A stretch of 64,000 bases of DNA from Clostridiaceae bacterium (GCA_034926225.1 JAYFRF010000001.1:165962-229961), one strand, 5' to 3'. Numbered from the stretch's first letter, positions 1-44,863 are shown. The notes: a model not told the origin generated them from the sequence alone. Program-made: numbers and translations.

Positions 1-85
1 TTACAAATATTCAGCTAAGACATCCAGCCTGACCACTTGACTATCAAAACTTCCCTTTTGGACTTGTTCCCAGGAACCTGCTAAA
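1..85 (-). repeat. Conserved intergenic module, copy R0 (partial; central unit missing, distal part cut by window edge)
   Basis: Plus strand reads GACATCCAGCCTGACCAC (19-36), then a CAAAA/TTTTG hairpin, then TTGGACTTGTTCC..GAACC. It aligns with copies R1-R3. Confidence 0.6.
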
Positions 86-89
86 CACC

Positions 90-761
90 TTATTTTATCT
101 GTTTGTTATAAATAATATTACACATGTGTCTATTGGGGTCATTATCAAAGGTAATAATGGCGTCAGAAAGAATAGCGCCCCATTCGCGCAATACACAAAC
201 TGCATCTTCAATAATTCTCAAGGTTGAATCTTCTTCTGTTAATAAATAGCTCAATTCTTTTTTGGGCTGTAATCTGATATTTTCTACTCCCATCTGCGGT
301 AATATTGATTCTAATGTTTTGCACTCAAACAGTGAACTTTTAACGCAACTGAATTGAAACCAACCATAATTATTAAAGTTATAGAGTTCTTTGGTTCCCC
401 ATTTCTCAAAAGCATACTCAACGTGAGTTGTACCTATACCGACTGGACATTTCAAATGCTCCAAGGCGTATGTAACAATCGTACCCAATTCATCTAGTTT
501 CCCTTTTTCACCATAATGGCTCCAATATGCTACTGCAAAATCATTGACCAGCTGTTCCTCGTTGACAGGGTGAGGGCGTGCATCACTATTGAACCACATA
601 AGACCGTGGCCTAATTCATGTATTAGATTATACCAATGAAAGTAGAGCTCAAACCTCTCTTTAGCATCTTCCCCTCCGAAAAGCAGGTCAACGATCTTGT
701 TATCATCAGGCGTTCCTTTCCCGTATCTACCCGTGATTATTTCTATAACTTTTTCATACAT
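90..761 (-). CDS. Hypothetical zincin-like protein with an HExxH motif (IHELGHGLMW)
   Basis: 223-aa ORF with a GGAGGG Shine-Dalgarno about 10 nt upstream of the ATG. It has a single HELGH motif. I do not recognise the family. AT-rich codon usage. Confidence 0.6.
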   Translation of the reverse strand: MYEKVIEIITGRYGKGTPDDNKIVDLLFGGEDAKERFELYFHWYNLIHELGHGLMWFNSDARPHPVNEEQLVNDFAVAYWSHYGEKGKLDELGTIVTYALEHLKCPVGIGTTHVEYAFEKWGTKELYNFNNYGWFQFSCVKSSLFECKTLESILPQMGVENIRLQPKKELSYLLTEEDSTLRIIEDAVCVLREWGAILSDAIITFDNDPNRHMCNIIYNKQIK

Positions 762-802
762 ATCTATACAGCCCTCCTACACATAATAAAAATTTCTTTG
801 TA

Positions 803-852
803 CTATTGCACTTTCTTTGTAATCAATACCACGACTCAACGTGGGATGGCAC
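803..852 (-). pseudogene. Displaced, degenerate copy of the rlmD 3' terminus (copy 3)
   Basis: Minus strand reads ..CACGTTGAGTCGTGGTATTGATTACAAAGAAAGTGCAATAG. This gives HVE then, after a 1-nt deletion, VVLITKKVQ*. The resident rlmD end is HVETVVLMSRVEK*. It shares the GTATTGAT core. Confidence 0.6.
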
Positions 853-915
853 AAATCATCTTAAATATCTTTTACTTAATTCTGCAAGTGCGTTATTTTC
901 TCATAATTTATCCCC

Positions 916-1578
916 CTATTTTGTATTCCACGGAATAGGAGCGTTCAACTCTATTGTTCCGGCCATAATAGGCGTTTTCTCCCCTGTATCCGGATTGGTA
1001 GGCTGGTCGATTTGATACAAAAACCCTGTCTTTCCGTATCTGCCAAGCTTGCTTTGGTTATAGTAGTCGCTGTCCAGGCAAATGTTGACGGTTTTCAATG
1101 CGACCGTCACTTCACGGCACCCAAAAAAACCGGCATTCTCGAATAGTTCATGTTCCCATAAAAACTCACATTCAATGTTGAGAAAACACTCTTTGATCCG
1201 CGGTGCGTTGACCTTCACGGCTCTTTCCGCCGTCAAACCAGTGACGGTAATTTCATCCGTCTCAAATTCATTGTTCCCAATTGTTTTTATACAGCGGTCA
1301 TATATATCATATGAAGGAAAGTTTAGCACGCAAACTCCGGTTTCTTTGAGCGATTGATACATATGTCCGCTTTTTGAGACTGCGCCCATAATACAGATAA
1401 ATTCATCTTTCCCGCCTCCTACAAAAGTTGACCATGATTGTAGACAAGCGTTTTCTTTCCCGTTTGATTTCCAGCCTGTGACGACGAATACCAAAGATGG
1501 CATGGCTGTCAAAAAGCCCTGCCATGTACACCATGGTTCAGTAATTTTTTCAGGTCTTGTAGAAAATTCCTTTTTCAT
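916..1578 (-). CDS. Flavin reductase-like (FMN-binding split-barrel) family protein
   Basis: 220-aa ORF with a GGGAGGG SD. The sequence pattern (..PSLVFVVTG..NG.EN..L.SW.TFV...) is typical of flavin reductase-like domain proteins. AT-rich. Confidence 0.6.
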   Translation of the reverse strand: MKKEFSTRPEKITEPWCTWQGFLTAMPSLVFVVTGWKSNGKENACLQSWSTFVGGGKDEFICIMGAVSKSGHMYQSLKETGVCVLNFPSYDIYDRCIKTIGNNEFETDEITVTGLTAERAVKVNAPRIKECFLNIECEFLWEHELFENAGFFGCREVTVALKTVNICLDSDYYNQSKLGRYGKTGFLYQIDQPTNPDTGEKTPIMAGTIELNAPIPWNTK

Positions 1579-1706
1579 GACATTACCCTCCCATACCGTA
1601 TATAAATTATATGTAATTCAAATCTATCAGAATGTCTGATATCCCTATTAACGTGAATCCATTTTGTTATTTCACAGACAAATAAACATATTATTATATT
1701 TCGAGT

Positions 1707-1877
1707 ATGTTGGTTAGCCTATTCTACTAACCACAAAACCTTGCCAAAATCAAATCACAAACCCATGTTAACTAAACTGACCACTCCCTAAGAGCCGACA
1801 TCTAAAATCGCTCTGTACGGGTCAAAATCATGCCGTTGGACTTGTTTCCACGAACCGAATTATAATGATTTTTACAC
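1707..1877 (-). repeat. Conserved intergenic module, copy R1
   Basis: Plus strand: ATGTTGGTTAGCCTATTCTA ... CTGACCAC ... GACATCTAAAATCGCTCTGT ... hairpin ... TTGGACTTGTTTCCACGAACCGAATTATAATGATTTTTACAC. It aligns with R2 and R3. Confidence 0.7.
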
Positions 1878-1955
1878 AATGGGCTTCGCACCATGTGTGC
1901 TTAACCCTTTATTTTATAAGGGCTATAATCATACCCATCTTTATATAAACTCCAC

Positions 1956-2804
1956 TCAGCAAAATGCGATTATCAAACCTCCGCGCTCGGCATAGAAACT
2001 ATCAAGCCCTCTTGTTTTTAGAATTGTCACTTTTGCGCTTTCCCAAAGTTGGAGAACGCCTGTGCGGACTTTATCAGCCATTTCTTCGTTAAAGCAATGG
2101 CTGATAGCTACCTCACCGCCTTGAAATCCACGCTGCTTCAAGTCGTCCAGTATCATGTCTATAACCTTGTCTGTTCCCCTTGCTTTTCCCTTAATCGCAA
2201 TTTTACCCTCAACGCTTGCTATTCCAACACCCCACATGCCAAATGCCTTAGCAATAAACCCTTTGAGTTTGCTCATTCGTCCGTTCTTTACGAGATTGTT
2301 AAAAGAAGATAGGGCAAAAGTAGTTTTAGTTTCCTCTAAGAACTTTTCTGCTTTTTCTACTATTGTTTCAATGGTTTGGTGACCTTTGATCCATTCAGCA
2401 ATATGATGAATACAGAGAGCGATCTCAGGACCTGTGGAAAGGGAATCCAAAACAACAATTCTCTTTTCCGGATGCTCTGACATTACTATATCGACAGCTG
2501 CCATAGCACTGTTATAACTGCCTGATAAATTGGCAGATATCGTGATCGCTATAGTTGTTTCTGCATTTTTAAACTGCTCTACCCACGCACCCGGGGAAGG
2601 ACAAGCAGAGGAACTAGCAGTGGGAAGTGCTTCCATATCATCAAGCATTTTGAGAACATCCAACTGCTCGTCATCTATATAATCAAGCTTTCCGACACTA
2701 AGGACAAATTCGACGGTAGAAAAACCGACCTCCTCACAGTCCACATCTTTTTTCATCAAATCGCAGGAAGAGTCTGCAACAATGTTCCATTTCATACTTA
2801 TCAT
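1956..2804 (-). CDS. degV: DegV family fatty-acid-binding protein
   Basis: 282-aa ORF with DegV hallmarks (IVADSSCDL near the N-terminus, LSGSYNSA). The start may instead be the ATG at 2795 (MKWNIV..). Confidence 0.85.
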   Translation of the reverse strand: MISMKWNIVADSSCDLMKKDVDCEEVGFSTVEFVLSVGKLDYIDDEQLDVLKMLDDMEALPTASSSACPSPGAWVEQFKNAETTIAITISANLSGSYNSAMAAVDIVMSEHPEKRIVVLDSLSTGPEIALCIHHIAEWIKGHQTIETIVEKAEKFLEETKTTFALSSFNNLVKNGRMSKLKGFIAKAFGMWGVGIASVEGKIAIKGKARGTDKVIDMILDDLKQRGFQGGEVAISHCFNEEMADKVRTGVLQLWESAKVTILKTRGLDSFYAERGGLIIAFC

Positions 2805-2849
2805 TATTTCCTAAACATTTTTTTGTGTAATAATTTTTGAGTACATCAA

Positions 2850-2974
2850 GGTTACCTAACTATGACATCTAACTTGACCACTCGCCAAGCACCGACATCT
2901 AAATCGCTCTGTCAAATTCGAAATCATAGCTTTTGACTTGTTTCCGTGAACCGAATTATCACGATTTTTTACAT
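2850..2974 (-). repeat. Conserved intergenic module, copy R2
   Basis: Plus strand: GGTTACCTAACTA-GACATCTAACTTGACCAC-N11-GACATCTAAATCGCTCTGT-GTCAAA/TTTGAC hairpin-TTGACTTGTTTCCGTGAACCGAATTATCACGATTTTTTACA. It lies directly downstream of rlmD-end copy 1. Confidence 0.7.
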
Positions 2975-3028
2975 TGGTTTGAACTCTCGAATCTTGAAAG
3001 GCTCATATATACTAGACTGTCCATGTAA

Positions 3029-3091
3029 TCATTTTTCGACCTTTGGCATCAATACTACATACCAAACGTGAGTGGTCGATATGGATGTCAC
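3029..3091 (-). pseudogene. Displaced, diverged copy of the rlmD 3' terminus (copy 1)
   Basis: Minus strand reads CACGTTTGGTATGTAGTATTGATGCCAAAGGTCGAAAAATGA, giving HVWYVVLMPKVEK*. The resident end is HVETVVLMSRVEK*. Hand alignment gives about 70% nucleotide identity, with a 12-nt perfect block CATCAATACTAC. Confidence 0.7.
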
Positions 3092-3149
3092 CCGATATTT
3101 TTCGTATAACAGGTGTTGTAGAACGCAAAGTTTATATCTTTCTGTACTT

Positions 3150-3208
3150 TTATGGCTTCATCAATACAACTGTCTCAACCTGTGTGTTCGTGGAAACATG
3201 TCGACATC
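3150..3208 (-). pseudogene. Displaced, diverged copy of the rlmD 3' terminus (copy 2, frameshifted)
   Basis: Minus strand reads GTCGACATGTTTCCACGAACACACAGGTTGAGACAGTTGTATTGATGAAGCCATAA. This gives VDMFPRT.H then, after a frameshift, VETVVLMKP*. The resident end is VDMFPRTAHVETVVLMSRVEK*. Confidence 0.7.
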
Positions 3209-3257
3209 ATTCTATATATGTGTTCATATAAATGATGTATTTATGCTGGTTTAACAT

Positions 3258-3353
3258 TCATTCTGACCTCTCAAGAAATAAGTAAATACCTACACGCTTT
3301 TCTCGCTTTGGAGGTAATGGTGGGATGAAATGAATTGTTTTATTATCAGCCAT
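3258..3353 (-). pseudogene. 31-codon stub resembling the N-terminus of a large serine recombinase (truncated)
   Basis: GGAGG lies 7 nt upstream of the ATG. The product is MADNKTIHFIPPLPPKREKRVGIYLFLERSE*. The ..IP.....KRVGIY.. segment resembles the leader running into the catalytic (K/R)xxxYxRVS motif, but the ORF breaks right after GIY. Assigned from memory of the family only. Confidence 0.35.
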
Positions 3354-3403
3354 TACAAAACCTCCGTTATTACAATTTCATTGTAAAATAGCGGTTTAAT
3401 TTT

Positions 3404-4171
3404 TCAATCTATTTTTCTCCATTTTAAATTTAGCGCTTTGATAAACGAACCCGTATAATTTAAATCCTCTTTATCCAAATCTTCATCTGCCCAAAAAACA
3501 CATTCATCTTCAACGAATAAGCATGCGCCAAAGATTTCTCGGCTATAATTTTCCAGCGCAGGCCTTAAATTCATTGATATCAGACCCTCAAAGTGAAGTT
3601 CGACAATACCATACCAACCGGAATTATTGAAGGTTACAATCAAATTCCTTTGACTATAATCCTCAACATACTGTAATTTATCAAGTGTTGAATCATGAAA
3701 TCCCGTAAACACATTTAATAACGTGTCCGCATCACTTTGAGTCTTAATATATGTCCACTGGTCAGTGTCACTTGGTTCCCTCACTTGAATTGAACACTCA
3801 CTTCTTGGTACGAACCTGTCTCGAAGAATTCTGTGCATAAAATCAAAGTCCTGATAAATCTCAGCATATCCGGAATATTGTTTTATAAAAGCATTTATAC
3901 CATTGCTCTTAAAGAAACGGTTGAGCTTTAAAACATTAACTTTATCATATGTTACCCATTCATTTCTGTCGGAATTGATTATCTCTATCAATGGGAGTAA
4001 CACGCTCTGGTCCTTGGTTTCTTTATCCAGATAATCCACTATCTCGAACGCGTCCTCTCTTGGGTTGAATACGATGTTGCGCTCATAATACCCTATATCA
4101 AGTTTTCCATAAATGATAGATTTATAGAAAAATCCGGTCTTTTTATCAAACACACGCGCAAACATTATCAT
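3404..4171 (-). CDS. Hypothetical protein (no recognisable domain)
   Basis: The ORF is open from 4222, but the AAGAGGAGG SD sits just before the ATGs at 4171 and 4165 (MIMFARVFDKK..). AT-rich. No motif recognised. Confidence 0.6.
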   Translation of the reverse strand: MIMFARVFDKKTGFFYKSIIYGKLDIGYYERNIVFNPREDAFEIVDYLDKETKDQSVLLPLIEIINSDRNEWVTYDKVNVLKLNRFFKSNGINAFIKQYSGYAEIYQDFDFMHRILRDRFVPRSECSIQVREPSDTDQWTYIKTQSDADTLLNVFTGFHDSTLDKLQYVEDYSQRNLIVTFNNSGWYGIVELHFEGLISMNLRPALENYSREIFGACLFVEDECVFWADEDLDKEDLNYTGSFIKALNLKWRKID

Positions 4172-4221
4172 CAACCTCCTCTTAACACTATGGCTATTAA
4201 TCATTTTGGCATATTTCAGCA

Positions 4222-4400
4222 ATGTTGATTAGCCTATTTTAGCTTTTTTATGTTAACATCCAACCTGACCACACAACCTTGGAAAATCCAAAAAACATCT
4301 AAATCGACTACTCGTCAAACACTGACATCTAAATCGCTCTGTCACAAAGAATATCGCTTGTTTCGACCTGTTCCCCCAAGGCAAAGAACCGACAAATTTT
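4222..4400 (-). repeat. Conserved intergenic module, copy R3 (with one extra 30-nt sub-unit)
   Basis: Plus strand: ATGTTGATTAGCCTATTTTA..AACATCCAACCTGACCAC..AACATCTAAATCGAC..GACATCTAAATCGCTCTGT..ACAAG/CTTGT hairpin..GACCTGTTCCC..GAACCGAC. It lies directly downstream of the resident rlmD stop and terminator. Confidence 0.7.
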
Positions 4401-4427
4401 AAGTAACGGTTTTTAGTAACAAATCCT

Positions 4428-4452
4428 GAAAAGCCTTTATTTCAAGGCTTTC
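4428..4452 (-). terminator. Stem-loop just after the rlmD stop (probable terminator)
   Basis: GAAAAGCCTT / AAGGCTTTC inverted repeat with a 6-nt loop, about 8 nt downstream of the rlmD stop. The U-run is weak. Confidence 0.45.
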
Positions 4453-4459
4453 CAAACCT

Positions 4460-5851
4460 CTACTTTTCTACCCTTGACATCAATACTACCGTCTCAACGT
4501 GTGCCGTACGGGGGAACATATCCACCGCTCTTGCGCGTACGGGGGCATAACTCCCGGCAAGGCGTTTGATATCCCGAGCCAGCGTTGCGGGGTCGCAGGA
4601 TACATACACAATCCGTTCGGGAGCCAGCGTAATCAGCATCGCAGCAGCATCCTCGGACAATCCTTTACGCGGGGGATCGACGATGATCGCATCGAAATGG
4701 TCGTTTACGGCGAGGGTTTTGGCATACTCGCCCGCATCTCCACAGTGGAAATCCGCATTCACGATACCATTCGCTGTAGCGTTCTCCCGAGCGTCGCAGA
4801 CGGCAGCTTCTACGATCTCGACGCCGGTCACATGTTCACAGACATCGGCACAGAACAAGCCGATGGTTCCGGTACCGCAGTAAAGATCCAAGAGGCGGCG
4901 GGGATGGTACGGGATACCGGTGTCGGAATGGGTCAGAAACGCTTTGGCACAGGAGTAAAGCTTGGCCGCAGCGAGTGGATTGACTTGAAAAAACGATGCG
5001 GGACGGAGTCGGAACGCAAGGGCGCCGATGGTATCGGTCAGCGTCTCGTCGCCCCAGAGGGTGATAAACTCCCGCCCGAGGATGACATTGGTTCGGACGG
5101 CATTGATGTTTAAAACGATACCGCTGACCGTAAGGCAGGCGGAACGGACAGCGTCGATAAGGGCTTCTTTGTGTGGGATCTCGCGTTTTGCGGCGACGAG
5201 TGTCAGGACAGTGTGTCGATCCTGAAAGGAGGTGCGAACACAGATATGACGGATCAGCCCGTGCCCGGAAAGCTCATTATAAGCGGGAATGCCGTGTGCA
5301 TTCATCCAACCCAGGACAGCCTGTGAAACCGCGGCAGCTTCCGGGGTTTGCAGACGGCAGTATTCTGTGGGTATGACGTCGTGCGTATTGGTACGGTAGA
5401 ATCCGCAGACGGCTTTCCCCGCCTCCCCTGCCACGGGGAACTGTGCGCGGTTGCGGTAGACGTCCACGAGCGGGGATGGAATAATCGGTTCTAACGGGAC
5501 GGAGATACCTGCGATGCGTTCGAAAGCGTCGCGTACCTTTTGTTCCTTATAGCGGAGCTCTTCCGCGTAGGTCATATGCCGTAATGCGCAGCCGCCGCAT
5601 TTGGGATAAACTGCGCAGTCCGGACAGATGCGTTCGGGGGATTCATCAACGACCCGCTCGAGCTTGCCAAAGGCATATGTTTTCTGTACCTTTAAAATAC
5701 GCAGGTCAACCGTTTCCCCAGCGATGGCGCAGGGCGTAAAGACGGCCATGCCATCGATATGGGTTACTCCCGCGCCTTCGCTGGTGTAGCCATCGATGGC
5801 GGCGGTTACGATGTCGTTTTTACGCATGTTCATAAAATACCGCACTTTCAT
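4460..5851 (-). CDS. rlmD: 23S rRNA (uracil-C5)-methyltransferase, RlmD/RumA (TrmA) family
   Basis: It has an N-terminal TRAM-like domain, a Cys cluster (CPDC..C..CGGC) for an Fe-S centre and a class I SAM-MTase core (DLYCGTGTIG; DPPRKG). The start is uncertain: 5851, 5833 or 5827, all overlapping the upstream gene's end. Confidence 0.9.
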   Translation of the reverse strand: MKVRYFMNMRKNDIVTAAIDGYTSEGAGVTHIDGMAVFTPCAIAGETVDLRILKVQKTYAFGKLERVVDESPERICPDCAVYPKCGGCALRHMTYAEELRYKEQKVRDAFERIAGISVPLEPIIPSPLVDVYRNRAQFPVAGEAGKAVCGFYRTNTHDVIPTEYCRLQTPEAAAVSQAVLGWMNAHGIPAYNELSGHGLIRHICVRTSFQDRHTVLTLVAAKREIPHKEALIDAVRSACLTVSGIVLNINAVRTNVILGREFITLWGDETLTDTIGALAFRLRPASFFQVNPLAAAKLYSCAKAFLTHSDTGIPYHPRRLLDLYCGTGTIGLFCADVCEHVTGVEIVEAAVCDARENATANGIVNADFHCGDAGEYAKTLAVNDHFDAIIVDPPRKGLSEDAAAMLITLAPERIVYVSCDPATLARDIKRLAGSYAPVRARAVDMFPRTAHVETVVLMSRVEK

Positions 5852-40412: not shown

Positions 40413-40488
40413 TGGAGCGGGTTACGAGATTCGAACTCGCTACCTCCACCTTGGCAAGGTGGCGCTCTACCAAATGAGCTAAACCCGC
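40413..40488 (-). tRNA. tRNA-Gly (GCC), copy 2
   Basis: Hand-folded cloverleaf with 7-bp acceptor stem, anticodon loop TTGCCAA, T-loop TTCGAAT and encoded CCA. Identical to the copy at 40587. Confidence 0.9.
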
Positions 40489-40586
40489 AGATAATTGCAA
40501 AAAATAATGTACCAAAAAAATATCGCGGAGAGACACCGTATGTGTTCTACCGATCAACAAGGGAACAACCTTAACGAAAGGAAAAG

Positions 40587-40662
40587 TGGAGCGGGTTACG
40601 AGATTCGAACTCGCTACCTCCACCTTGGCAAGGTGGCGCTCTACCAAATGAGCTAAACCCGC
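40587..40662 (-). tRNA. tRNA-Gly (GCC), copy 1
   Basis: 76 nt, identical to 40413..40488. Confidence 0.9.
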
Positions 40663-40666
40663 AAAT

Positions 40667-40742
40667 TGGTGCCTCCGGGCGGAATTGAACCACCGACACG
40701 GGGATTTTCAGTCCCCTGCTCTACCAACTGAGCTACAGAGGC
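40667..40742 (-). tRNA. tRNA-Phe (GAA)
   Basis: Cloverleaf folded by hand, with anticodon loop CTGAAAA and encoded CCA. Confidence 0.9.
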
Positions 40743-40764
40743 AAATAAAATAAAAAGGGGAGAA

Positions 40765-40841
40765 TGGCGACCCGAATGGGGCTCGAACCCATGACCTCTA
40801 GCGTGACAGGCTAGCGTTCTAACCAGCTGAACTACCGGGCC
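40765..40841 (-). tRNA. tRNA-Asp (GUC)
   Basis: Cloverleaf folded by hand, with anticodon loop CTGTCAC and encoded CCA. Confidence 0.9.
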
Positions 40842-40888
40842 GCATATTGCGTTGCAGTTTGAGGCGCGGTATCCACCTCAAAAAACAT

Positions 40889-40964
40889 TGGTGGAAACAA
40901 CAGGGCTCGAACCTGTGACCCCATGCTTGTAAGGCATGTGCTCTTCCAGCTGAGCTATGCTTCC
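40889..40964 (-). tRNA. tRNA-Val (UAC)
   Basis: Cloverleaf folded by hand, with anticodon loop CTTACAA and encoded CCA. Confidence 0.9.
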
Positions 40965-43443: not shown

Positions 43444-43520
43444 CGGGGTGTAGCTCAGTTTGGTAGAGCGCTTGGTTCGGGACCAAGAGGCCGGAGGTTC
43501 AAGTCCTCTCACTCCGACCA
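43444..43520 (+). tRNA. tRNA-Pro (CGG)
   Basis: Cloverleaf folded by hand, with anticodon loop TTCGGGA and encoded CCA. Confidence 0.9.
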
Positions 43521-44290: not shown

Positions 44291-44863
44291 AATGTTCTGT
44301 GTGCACCTTTTTATTATTTCCACACCTTTTAACGAAAAGTCGGAGAGGTTTGCATTTCGTATCAAAGTAGGTCACTACTTTCAAGAAATAGGACGATTTT
44401 TAATCATGATAACGTCCTATTTCTTTTTGTTTTACCCAAATAGAACTGCCCAATATTGGGCAAAAAACGAAAACATTGTATATGGTTTAGCTCTCATCGT
44501 TTTATAATATTGTTAAATTATCGAGTGATCAGGCACAGAATATTGACTTTAGCATATGACTGTAATATAATATATATAATCTCTTTGCACTGCATTACAT
44601 TTCTTTTATAGAAATGCGAGATCAACAGTACAAACTGAGCAGGCGATGCCTGTAAGGGCATGGGGCTGGGCCGCTCTGCAAGCGGCAGCAGGATGCAATC
44701 ACGCATATCTGTGGGACGGTATGTATGTTCCATGGGATATGCTGTTTTTATACCTATAGCATTATACAGCTATATCGAGGGAACAACCGACCTCAATGGA
44801 GTGCCATAGGAGAAATCAAGACACCGTAATGCCGTACGGCAGCGGAAAACGGAGGATTCTTTT

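Follow-up and report, generated by a model that had tools for sequence, protein, structure and literature searches.

The opening island of the Clostridiaceae bacterium stretch analyzed here (GCA_034926225.1 JAYFRF010000001.1:165962-229961; 64,000 nucleotides, called the window throughout) is an array of mobile-element ends that accumulated by accretion at the 3' end of the host gene rlmD/rumA (rumA below), which encodes a 23S rRNA (uracil-5) methyltransferase, and then decayed. Its repeated units, the four modules R0 to R3, are ends of elements that use rumA as a hot spot and that are tied to serine recombinases; each module is probably the left (P'-side) arm of an element whose site-specific integration at the rumA 3' end is carried out by a serine recombinase. 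The first-pass annotation had described the modules as junctions, and this is where we depart from it: rather than joining the cassettes of a system that operates where it stands, they are element ends stacked by tandem integration that have since decayed. The link to rumA, the duplicated rumA 3' ends and the recombinase stub described below were all absent from it.

The island spans window positions 1-4440, with a GC content of 35-40% compared with about 55% for the remainder, and it adjoins the 3' end of rumA; the GC shift coincides with the crossover core and rumA tail at 4460-4501. The island genes are all on the minus strand: a 272-aa open reading frame (ORF) and genes for a DegV protein, a flavin-reductase-like protein and a 223-aa HExxH protein (Table 1).

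The position at which conservation begins identifies the site of integration. In an alignment of 107 family sequences, identity is 0.3-0.6 through the body of rumA and exceeds 0.9 from exactly CACGTTGAG (the H-V-E codons), and the DMFP codons of rumA lie upstream of box 1, the first of the phased repeats of the module, at a distance that is a constant 183-184 nt in at least 44 of 122 copies. In the window this core lies at 4493-4501, 11 codons ahead of the rumA stop. The published target, which counting back from the rumA stop is the GA of the 11th codon, is a cross-species site for serine-recombinase elements that are often found in tandem (PMC4120198), and rumA has been reported as a hot spot for such elements elsewhere (PMC4701971, PMC5704250, PMC11578063). 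The boundary of the arm meets this published site (between HV and E, codon GAG, the 11th codon from the stop); the symmetry of two site types would place the crossover dinucleotide in the ACGT within CACGTT, rather than at the published GA. Moreover, copies of the rumA 3' coding end (HVETVVLM through to the stop) recur inside the island at 3159-3210 and 3037-3091, with a degenerate one at 821-845, and the crossover sequence is repeated at each of these positions as well as at 4493-4501. Such duplicated rumA 3' ends are a signature of site-specific integration into rumA.

Two separate observations concern the core. The public-run contig L001 (86.7 kb, run SRR27243473), which spans the same locus, ends exactly at the crossover core (window 4496), starting TGAGACGGTAG; the break could mean that alternative arrangements or related elements are present in the sample or, equally, just reflect the repeated core sequence. 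In another locus, L133, an element at 1801-3780 with a 370-aa tyrosine integrase (read from the sequence) and a probable helix-turn-helix regulator (judged by its C-terminal sequence alone) ends exactly at the same rumA-type core, which may therefore also serve a tyrosine-recombinase element.

The four copies form a genuine, non-chance unit, as the first-pass annotation had held. A profile hidden Markov model (HMM) of the 107 sequences matches R3 (over 4538-4182), R2 (3091-2860) and R1 (1886-1670) with E values of 3e-84, 2e-54 and 2e-39, gives a weak and partial match to R0 (78-10), and detects no module copy in the other 59 kb of the window; a repeat finder and alignment recovered the same four copies. 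The 19-mer GACATCTAAATCGCTCTGT has two exact occurrences against none expected, and ACATCYAA has seven against 3.0 expected, all of them on the plus strand and six within modules. The modules share a single orientation, have boxes that are direct repeats and show no inverted-repeat structure at their boundaries, in agreement with the earlier view that they are neither miniature inverted-repeat transposable elements nor integron attC sites.

Reading from CACGTTGAG, the blocks of the arm (about 300 nt) follow a conserved order: 11 replacement codons and a stop that restore a native-like rumA end, a terminator hairpin, about 70 nt containing CGGTTCGTGGGAACAAGTCCAA, box 1 (GACAGAGCGATTTAGATGTC), up to three more boxes and then variable sequence. 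The later boxes have the 20-nt consensus cGAGTGGTCGATTTAGATGT, so that an arm has up to four boxes in direct orientation; one subfamily carries AATAGGCTAAYCAACAT past the last of them. The phased ACATCYAA sub-repeats singled out at first are real, and are the reverse complements of the box ends. Among 133 related loci the box-to-box spacing is quantized, at 30 nt in 82 cases and at 39-41 nt in 84, and in 901 kb the boxes match 494 times on the plus strand and 10 times on the minus strand. Boxes 3 and 4, which lie outside the pattern used to search for the family, are better conserved than the spacers between boxes. We considered whether the module might be a degenerate inverted rumA pseudogene, or otherwise coding; the 30-nt spacing would keep a reading frame, but spacings of 39, 40 and 41 nt are not all multiples of three, and we judge the module to be non-coding.

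A hairpin under selection had also been proposed, and a module encoding a structured RNA (a leader or small RNA) would account for it. Short stems are present in the window copies, and the stem in question, a 5-bp helix, is paired in 59% of cells compared with 48% in shuffled controls and 23-45% with a slid partner, with a covariation score of 0.29 versus 0.17 and a compensatory change at one helix pair (AU in 19 sequences, GC in 18). Across the family, however, covarying structure is weak and not universal: RNAalifold found no consensus structure in 67 diverse copies (-0.58 kcal/mol, no compensatory pairs), the named helix lacks pairing in 40% of its cells, a 4-bp alternative is similarly weak, and no Rfam family was matched, whether at the gathering threshold or at E <= 1. 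The two sequence versions of the helix track two recombinase types, so shared ancestry of the two subfamilies accounts for much of the covariation signal. We regard a structured RNA as scarcely credible.

The module is not locus-specific; it is widespread and mobile. A search pattern made of box 1 and the start of box 2, scanned against one genome per species, matched at least 118 loci/species, and a scan of viral contigs with the same pattern gave 14 more loci, which disposes of the possibility, raised by the first-pass annotation against itself, of a segmental duplication confined to this locus. The hosts, mostly Bacillota, include many Clostridia families, Bacilli, Negativicutes, Tissierellia, Acholeplasmataceae, a Bifidobacterium isolate and a few metagenome-assembled genomes (MAGs) of other phyla, some of whose assignments may be binning errors; identical modules were found in MAGs assigned to different taxa, and 10 hosts among the matches listed are cultured isolates. 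The window's own module had no match in phage and plasmid collections, where the family consensus matched over its first ~85 nt alone (the rumA end and terminator).

A search for a co-occurring recombinase bore fruit: a serine recombinase lies within the fetched stretch in 64 of the 133 loci, with its Resolvase/Recombinase domain content confirmed. The nearest one downstream is a large, convergent enzyme for 35 module copies and a co-oriented 307-aa enzyme for 12, which distinguishes two types of element. In type 1 (35 copies), the opposite strand encodes two large serine recombinases of ~522 and ~520 aa, each with Resolvase, Recombinase and Zn-ribbon domains, and the element continues with holin, amidase and minor tail protein (phrog_3475, E 5e-294) genes, by which it can be recognized as a prophage. 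The idea that an att junction is hidden between cargo and large recombinase genes was rejected, as nothing but a conserved terminator is found there; with no second junction in this interval, module and cargo belong to the left arm of the prophage.

An ORF of ~140 aa always lies between the two large recombinase genes (L008 3678-4100, L114 5020-5451, L133 6765-7181). Its product is a member of phage family phrog_7701 (E 2e-52) and can be aligned to the DNA-binding Recombinase domain of the large enzymes (E 5e-7); it could be a directionality factor or a box-binding protein. Beside the prophage recombinases the cargo (L008 804-2024; L114 1849-3390) includes a CAP12/Pycsar-type TIR-domain protein (Pfam) and a 513-aa protein, and the cargo slot may often carry anti-phage defense genes.

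Type 2 (12 copies) is a mini-element, a unit of just 2-3 kb in which a same-strand serine recombinase of ~307 aa, with Resolvase and Recombinase domains and without the zinc ribbon, is followed by a conserved right end of ~130 nt and then by the next core. Two complete mini-elements of 2.0-2.2 kb stand in tandem in Anaerovirgula multivorans SCA (L068 216-4552), each made up of a module, one cargo gene (encoding a metallo-beta-lactamase-like protein, by sequence reading, in one and a GNAT acetyltransferase, by Pfam, in the other), a ~307-aa serine recombinase and the conserved right end; their recombinases diverge (77% and 86% identity to the query). Complete units with both left and right ends were found in L019, L068 and L095. 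The first two ORFs downstream of modules are highly diverse (144 ORFs in 111 clusters) and include genes for nucleotidyltransferase, S-adenosylmethionine (SAM) methyltransferase, GGDEF, DUF7000, glyoxalase/bleomycin-resistance-fold, GNAT, Fic/Bro-N, beta-lactamase-fold, VanZ and TIR-domain proteins.

The window array carries the remains of such units. Directly after the 272-aa gene is a 24-codon stub that matches the N-terminus of the intact 307-aa recombinases in L051 and related loci, and an internal deletion joins this stub to a remnant of the type-A right end. Counting outward from rumA, the first element of the array consists of R3, cargo, a dead recombinase and a right end; the second is a ~110-nt remnant between two cores; the third runs from its core through R2, the DegV gene and the coreless R1 to the flavin-reductase-like gene; and the fourth comprises the probable core at 821-845, the HExxH gene and R0. 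L001 extends past window position 1, and there the fourth element continues, with a GGDEF gene and one further, final partial module (L001 5682-5734) beyond R0, followed by host-like DNA. Apart from the stub, there is no recombinase gene within the 13.5-kb flank on L001, and neither the outermost right end of the island nor the displaced native rumA end was found. Those cargo proteins of the window that were looked up by exact sequence had matches in the same genome alone, and the 256-aa form of the 272-aa protein (3404-4174) had no record.

Arrays of this kind are not confined to the window, since two or more modules occur within 8 kb of sequence at 17 of the 119 loci, and internal junctions read from right end to core to left end. 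In the accretion model, integrative and conjugative elements (ICEs), integrative and mobilizable elements (IMEs) and cis-mobilizable elements (CIMEs) stack by repeated integration into a regenerated att site (PMC5704250), and the published tandems at rumA (PMC4120198) are consistent with it. In the sequence of events that we propose for this family, the arm would rebuild the final 11 rumA codons and add a terminator, keeping the host gene intact; the rebuilt junction, encoding the same 11 residues as native rumA, would resemble an empty target and so permit further integration and head-to-tail arrays. At least four elements appear to have stacked in the window in this way, after which the loss of recombinase genes and of parts of the ends would have left immobile units of arm and cargo. 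CIMEs are defined by att-type ends that are kept, recombination and transfer genes that are lost, and a tandem arrangement; all of this is found in the window, with R1 and R0 lacking a core, so that just part of the array would still qualify. The array is a fossil without obvious remaining mobility.

An integron-like cassette system, in which the boxes would be crossover sites for single-gene cassettes, might seem to offer another account of the same layout. The cargo is extremely diverse and integron-like in kind (GNAT, glyoxalase, nucleotidyltransferase, methyltransferase), some modules stop just past box 2 while others begin just ahead of it, and modules may be split around cargo, as with R2 of the window and the partial copy at L001 5682-5734. 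The left breakpoints of the partial modules are scattered, however (HMM positions 110, 137-158, 176-189 and 235-239), and abut unrelated gene ends, as is typical of deletion; this indicates erosion and not a precise cassette reaction. A box would also be a lone half-site with no partner arm, there is no tyrosine IntI in the island or the 13.5-kb flank and no attC-like hairpin, and the complete units, which encode a recombinase of their own, use the rumA core for recombination. We judge a cassette system to be very unlikely, and return to the modules as ends of elements that integrate at rumA.

What the boxes do within these ends is a separate question, on which their likeness to the crossover site bears. 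A position weight matrix (PWM) was derived from the 27 nt immediately left of the core, which encode (P)VDMFPxT, in 42 host rumA arms. On this matrix CGGTTCGTGGGAACAAGTCCAA, taken as its reverse complement, reaches a median of 13.8 bits, compared with -10.6 for controls (99th percentile 2.6), and we refer to it as the inverted rumA-arm mimic. The half-site to the right of the core, GAGACGGTAGTATTGATGTC, aligns to the boxes in a single constant register, GAG-N11-GATGT; it falls within the top 0.6% of background on a PWM built solely from box 3, and the box consensus matches it at 16 of 24 positions (shuffle p ~0.013). At internal junction 2 of the window, a minus-orientation box (25.5 bits) abuts the core, giving a near-palindromic 45-bp site, and L008 and L092 have inverted boxes at distances of 24 and 37 nt from the core, respectively.

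Repeats are also seen at a second type of right end, found in viral contigs (L123 ~370-540, L124 and L129), which carries TTGACCTGTTCCCGNGAACGG, or GTCGATATGTTCCC in L129, as two or three direct repeats at spacings of 31 and 43 nt. These mimic the rumA VDMFP arm, mirroring the box array of the left arm.

The arm would thus bear one inverted mimic of the target's rumA side and up to four direct, phased, half-site-like boxes of 20 nt ahead of a variable cargo slot. Among the functions that had been suggested for the repeats, recombinase arm sites fit best, given the half-site likeness and the serine-recombinase elements; iterons do not, with no Rep gene and no origin features. We would put at a little short of an even chance that boxes and mimic are accessory binding sites for the recombinases, which would mark the element arm and so regulate synapsis or directionality. 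In this family, element and chromosome share one right half-site, so the products of integration would resemble the substrates, and an array unique to the element arm could supply the missing asymmetry; that boxes and mimic are true arm-type sites in this sense, the array marking the element partner, seems to us doubtful. Extra recombinase sites that impose directionality or topology are familiar from the res subsites II/III (Tn3/gamma-delta, Sin) and the arm-type sites of lambda attP, with which the boxes would share their function. The res accessory sites are inverted-repeat dimer sites, and the lambda arm sites serve a tyrosine integrase, whereas the boxes are direct mimics of a single half-site, and their binding is putative.

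Several points weigh against our interpretation, particularly as it concerns the boxes. Their similarity to the half-site is significant but modest, far below that between boxes, and the distance from inverted box to core differs among loci (18, 24 and 37 nt). Known large serine integrases need just simple att sites of ~40-50 bp, so that a need for accessory sites would be out of the ordinary. Both recombinase types occur with the same boxes, which fits a shared rumA-side specificity but also a function unrelated to the recombinase. The search pattern covered box 1 together with GTRGTC, close to where box 2 starts, so that the conservation of these parts is ascertainment-biased and the sample favors intact copies of both. 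The box region was not found in curated phage genomes or plasmid records; the fetched loci, of 8-13 kb, included neither the right (far) ends of prophages nor a displaced native rumA end; and L133, a candidate for the excised phage form (attP), was rejected because a different element, one with a tyrosine integrase, makes up its left flank, leaving no clean excised form.

If the boxes bound a transcription factor instead, the modules would be promoter/operator cassettes for the cargo (moron) genes, with the TTGGAT of box 4 as a -35 element; the first-pass annotation had likewise suggested that each copy might supply a promoter for the gene that follows. Modules do always stand ahead of same-strand cargo genes, TTGGAT-16-TAAAAT is present in R3 (4182-4501), a sigma-70-like site occurs in 57 of 125 modules compared with ~41 expected from shuffling, and an inverted motif (AATAGGCTAAT and, farther on, ATAGCCAT) follows box 4 in one subfamily. 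Yet the family has no conserved -35/-10 pair, the predicted sites are scattered over 160 nt, and a promoter scan of the window gave 18 sites, compared with 12.6 +/- 3.3 expected, which is no enrichment, and none past the last box. The mini-elements encode no regulator besides the recombinase, and a purely regulatory role leaves the half-site likeness of the boxes and the inverted rumA-arm mimic unexplained. We consider such a role unlikely as the explanation of the module, while it is compatible with the module being an element arm; an outward promoter for the cargo is possible but unproven.

Direct 20-nt repeats in one orientation and at regular spacing, beside a conserved housekeeping gene, might also be taken for the iterons of a replication origin or for transposase sites at a Tn7/Mu-type end. 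No Rep, TnsB-like or DDE transposase gene adjoins the modules examined, the opposite end lacks an inverted array (10 of 504 box matches are minus-oriented), and box spacings of 30 and 39-41 nt do not correspond to whole helical turns. The presence of rumA 3' ends in duplicate, moreover, speaks for recombination inside the gene and not insertion downstream of it, and we hold these readings to be extremely improbable.

Table 1. Features of the rumA-proximal island and its integration target (window coordinates).
Feature	Position	Strand	Evidence and remarks
rlmD/rumA, gene for the 23S rRNA (uracil-5) methyltransferase, integration target	4460-5851	-	Pfam tRNA_U5-meth_tr and TRAM; C-terminus ends in VDMFPRTAHVETVVLMSRVEK, then stop
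Crossover core CACGTTGAG with element-supplied final 11 rumA codons and stop (P' half-site GAGACGGTAGTATTGATGTC)	4460-4501	-	Conservation step, published target, GC shift
Intrinsic terminator past replaced rumA end	4425-4456	-	13-pair stem and T-rich tail (terminator scan); hairpin kept here in the family
Module R3, full (probable left arm)	4182-4501	-	HMM positions 13-420, E 3e-84; residue-level alignment
R3, inverted rumA-arm mimic	4361-4391		
R3, box 1	4324-4343		
R3, further boxes	4294-4313, 4255-4274		
R3, AATAGGCTAAT motif	4222-4240		
Cargo ORF, 272 aa (253 aa per gene caller), function unknown	3404-4222	-	ORF list; without Pfam or PHROG match
24-codon stub of ~307-aa serine recombinase gene (MADNKTIHFIPPLPPKREKRVGIY)	3282-3353	-	23/24 residues identical, E 1e-16
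Remnant of conserved type-A right end of mini-element	3227-3281	-	Right-end HMM positions 128-182, E 3e-10
Internal junction 1: rumA-like arm (VDMFPRTH), core, 11 codons (TVVLMKP, stop)	3159-3210	-	HMM positions 21-73, E 1e-5; repeat families D4, D8
Internal junction 2 and module R2	2860-3091	-	HMM positions 27-263, E 2e-54
Junction 2, inverted box as P arm	3070-3089		
Junction 2, core and 11 codons	3037-3071		
R2, inverted rumA-arm mimic	2933-2956		
R2, box 1	2894-2913		
R2, box 2	2864-2883		
Cargo, DegV-family protein	1956-2804	-	Pfam PF02645, E 3.5e-42
Module R1, partial, without crossover core	1670-1886	-	HMM positions 140-417, E 2e-39
R1, inverted rumA-arm mimic	1836-1861		
R1, box 1	1797-1817		
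R1, box 2	1767-1786		
R1, AATAGGCTAAC motif	1707-1727		
Cargo, flavin-reductase-like protein	916-1578	-	Pfam PF01613, E 7e-12
Probable additional crossover-core remnant (CACGTTGAGTCGTGGTATTGATTAC)	821-845	-	Equals family core variant CACGTTGAGTGCGTGGTATTGAT minus 1 nt; below HMM threshold
Cargo ORF, 223 aa, HELGH motif, function unknown	90-761	-	ORF list; without Pfam or PHROG match
Module R0, partial: inverted rumA-arm mimic, then single box	10-78	-	HMM positions 171-208 (E 1e-3) and 309-337 (E 0.2); repeat families D5, D7

Elsewhere in the window, a NiCo (nickel/cobalt) riboswitch aptamer lies at 44625-44721 on the plus strand (72.9 bits, gathering score 37), in a stretch of lower GC content (41-45% around 43-45 kb). 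A cluster of five tRNA genes is found at 40416-40964 (minus strand) and one more tRNA gene at 43444-43517 (plus strand). Two dips in GC content, one at 39-41 kb (44-47%) and one at 47-50 kb (44-46%), might mark additional islands.

Much of this has precedent: the target site, the use of serine recombinases and tandem accretion with decay to CIME-like remnants are already known. The rumA ICEs and IMEs (vanG elements, ICE-r, ICESp2905, IME_SpnAP200_rumA and CTn5 of C. difficile) have the same 11th-codon target, serine recombinases and frequent tandems, and neither phased half-site-like boxes nor an inverted target mimic is described for them (PMC4120198, PMC4701971, PMC5704250). Those elements replace the RumA C-terminus with a different, longer or frameshifted tail, whereas the arm described here restores a native-like 11-codon end with a terminator; their attR lies inside the recombinase gene, whereas in the present family no recombinase gene extends across the junction. 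Decayed, att-ended elements without recombination genes, stacked as in the window array, are likewise known as CIMEs from ICESt1/ICESt3 of Streptococcus thermophilus (PMC5704250). The classic CIME cases involve tyrosine integrases at fda or tRNA genes, in contrast to the serine-recombinase system at rlmD seen here, in which several ends are eroded and mobility in cis is doubtful.

The staphylococcal cassette chromosome (SCC) elements, including SCCmec, offer another parallel. Their serine recombinases (Ccr, often paired) integrate at the 3' end of the rRNA methyltransferase gene rlmH (orfX) and preserve the gene, and they form tandem composite islands bounded by repeated att sequences. SCC thus resembles the present family in the kind of target, the preserved gene, the serine recombinases and the tandem islands, but differs from it in the gene, the host range and the recombinase family, and its ends are short direct and inverted repeats and not a 300-nt arm with four phased boxes. 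The integron attI with its cassette array is alike in having a conserved platform, variable small adaptive genes and arrays; it depends, however, on the tyrosine recombinase IntI and attC, whereas the complete units here encode a serine recombinase of their own and have the rumA core as insertion site. A study of small serine recombinases as markers of defense islands mentions neither rumA nor these repeats (PMC13552941). In the papers cited here, and in phage and plasmid collections beyond the first 85 nt, we did not find the 300-nt arm with its native-like rumA end, boxes and inverted mimic, nor a single arm common to prophages with paired large recombinases and to 2-3 kb mini-elements whose recombinase lacks the zinc ribbon.

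These findings widen to more than 118 species the reach of rlmD/rumA, which in streptococci, enterococci and clostridia is a known landing pad for resistance elements, and the arm, given its diverse cargo slot, is a practical marker for gene-capture hot spots in anaerobe genomes. If boxes and mimic were true arm-type sites, the doubtful case considered above, the family would provide a class of self-mobile single-gene elements of 2-3 kb that build integron-like arrays at rlmD across Bacillota, as well as a serine-recombinase system in which directionality or regulation is set by reiterated half-sites and which includes a 307-aa enzyme without zinc-ribbon and coiled-coil domains. Should the half-site arrays indeed control recombination, they would represent a new regulatory principle for the serine integrases, which are common tools of genome engineering.

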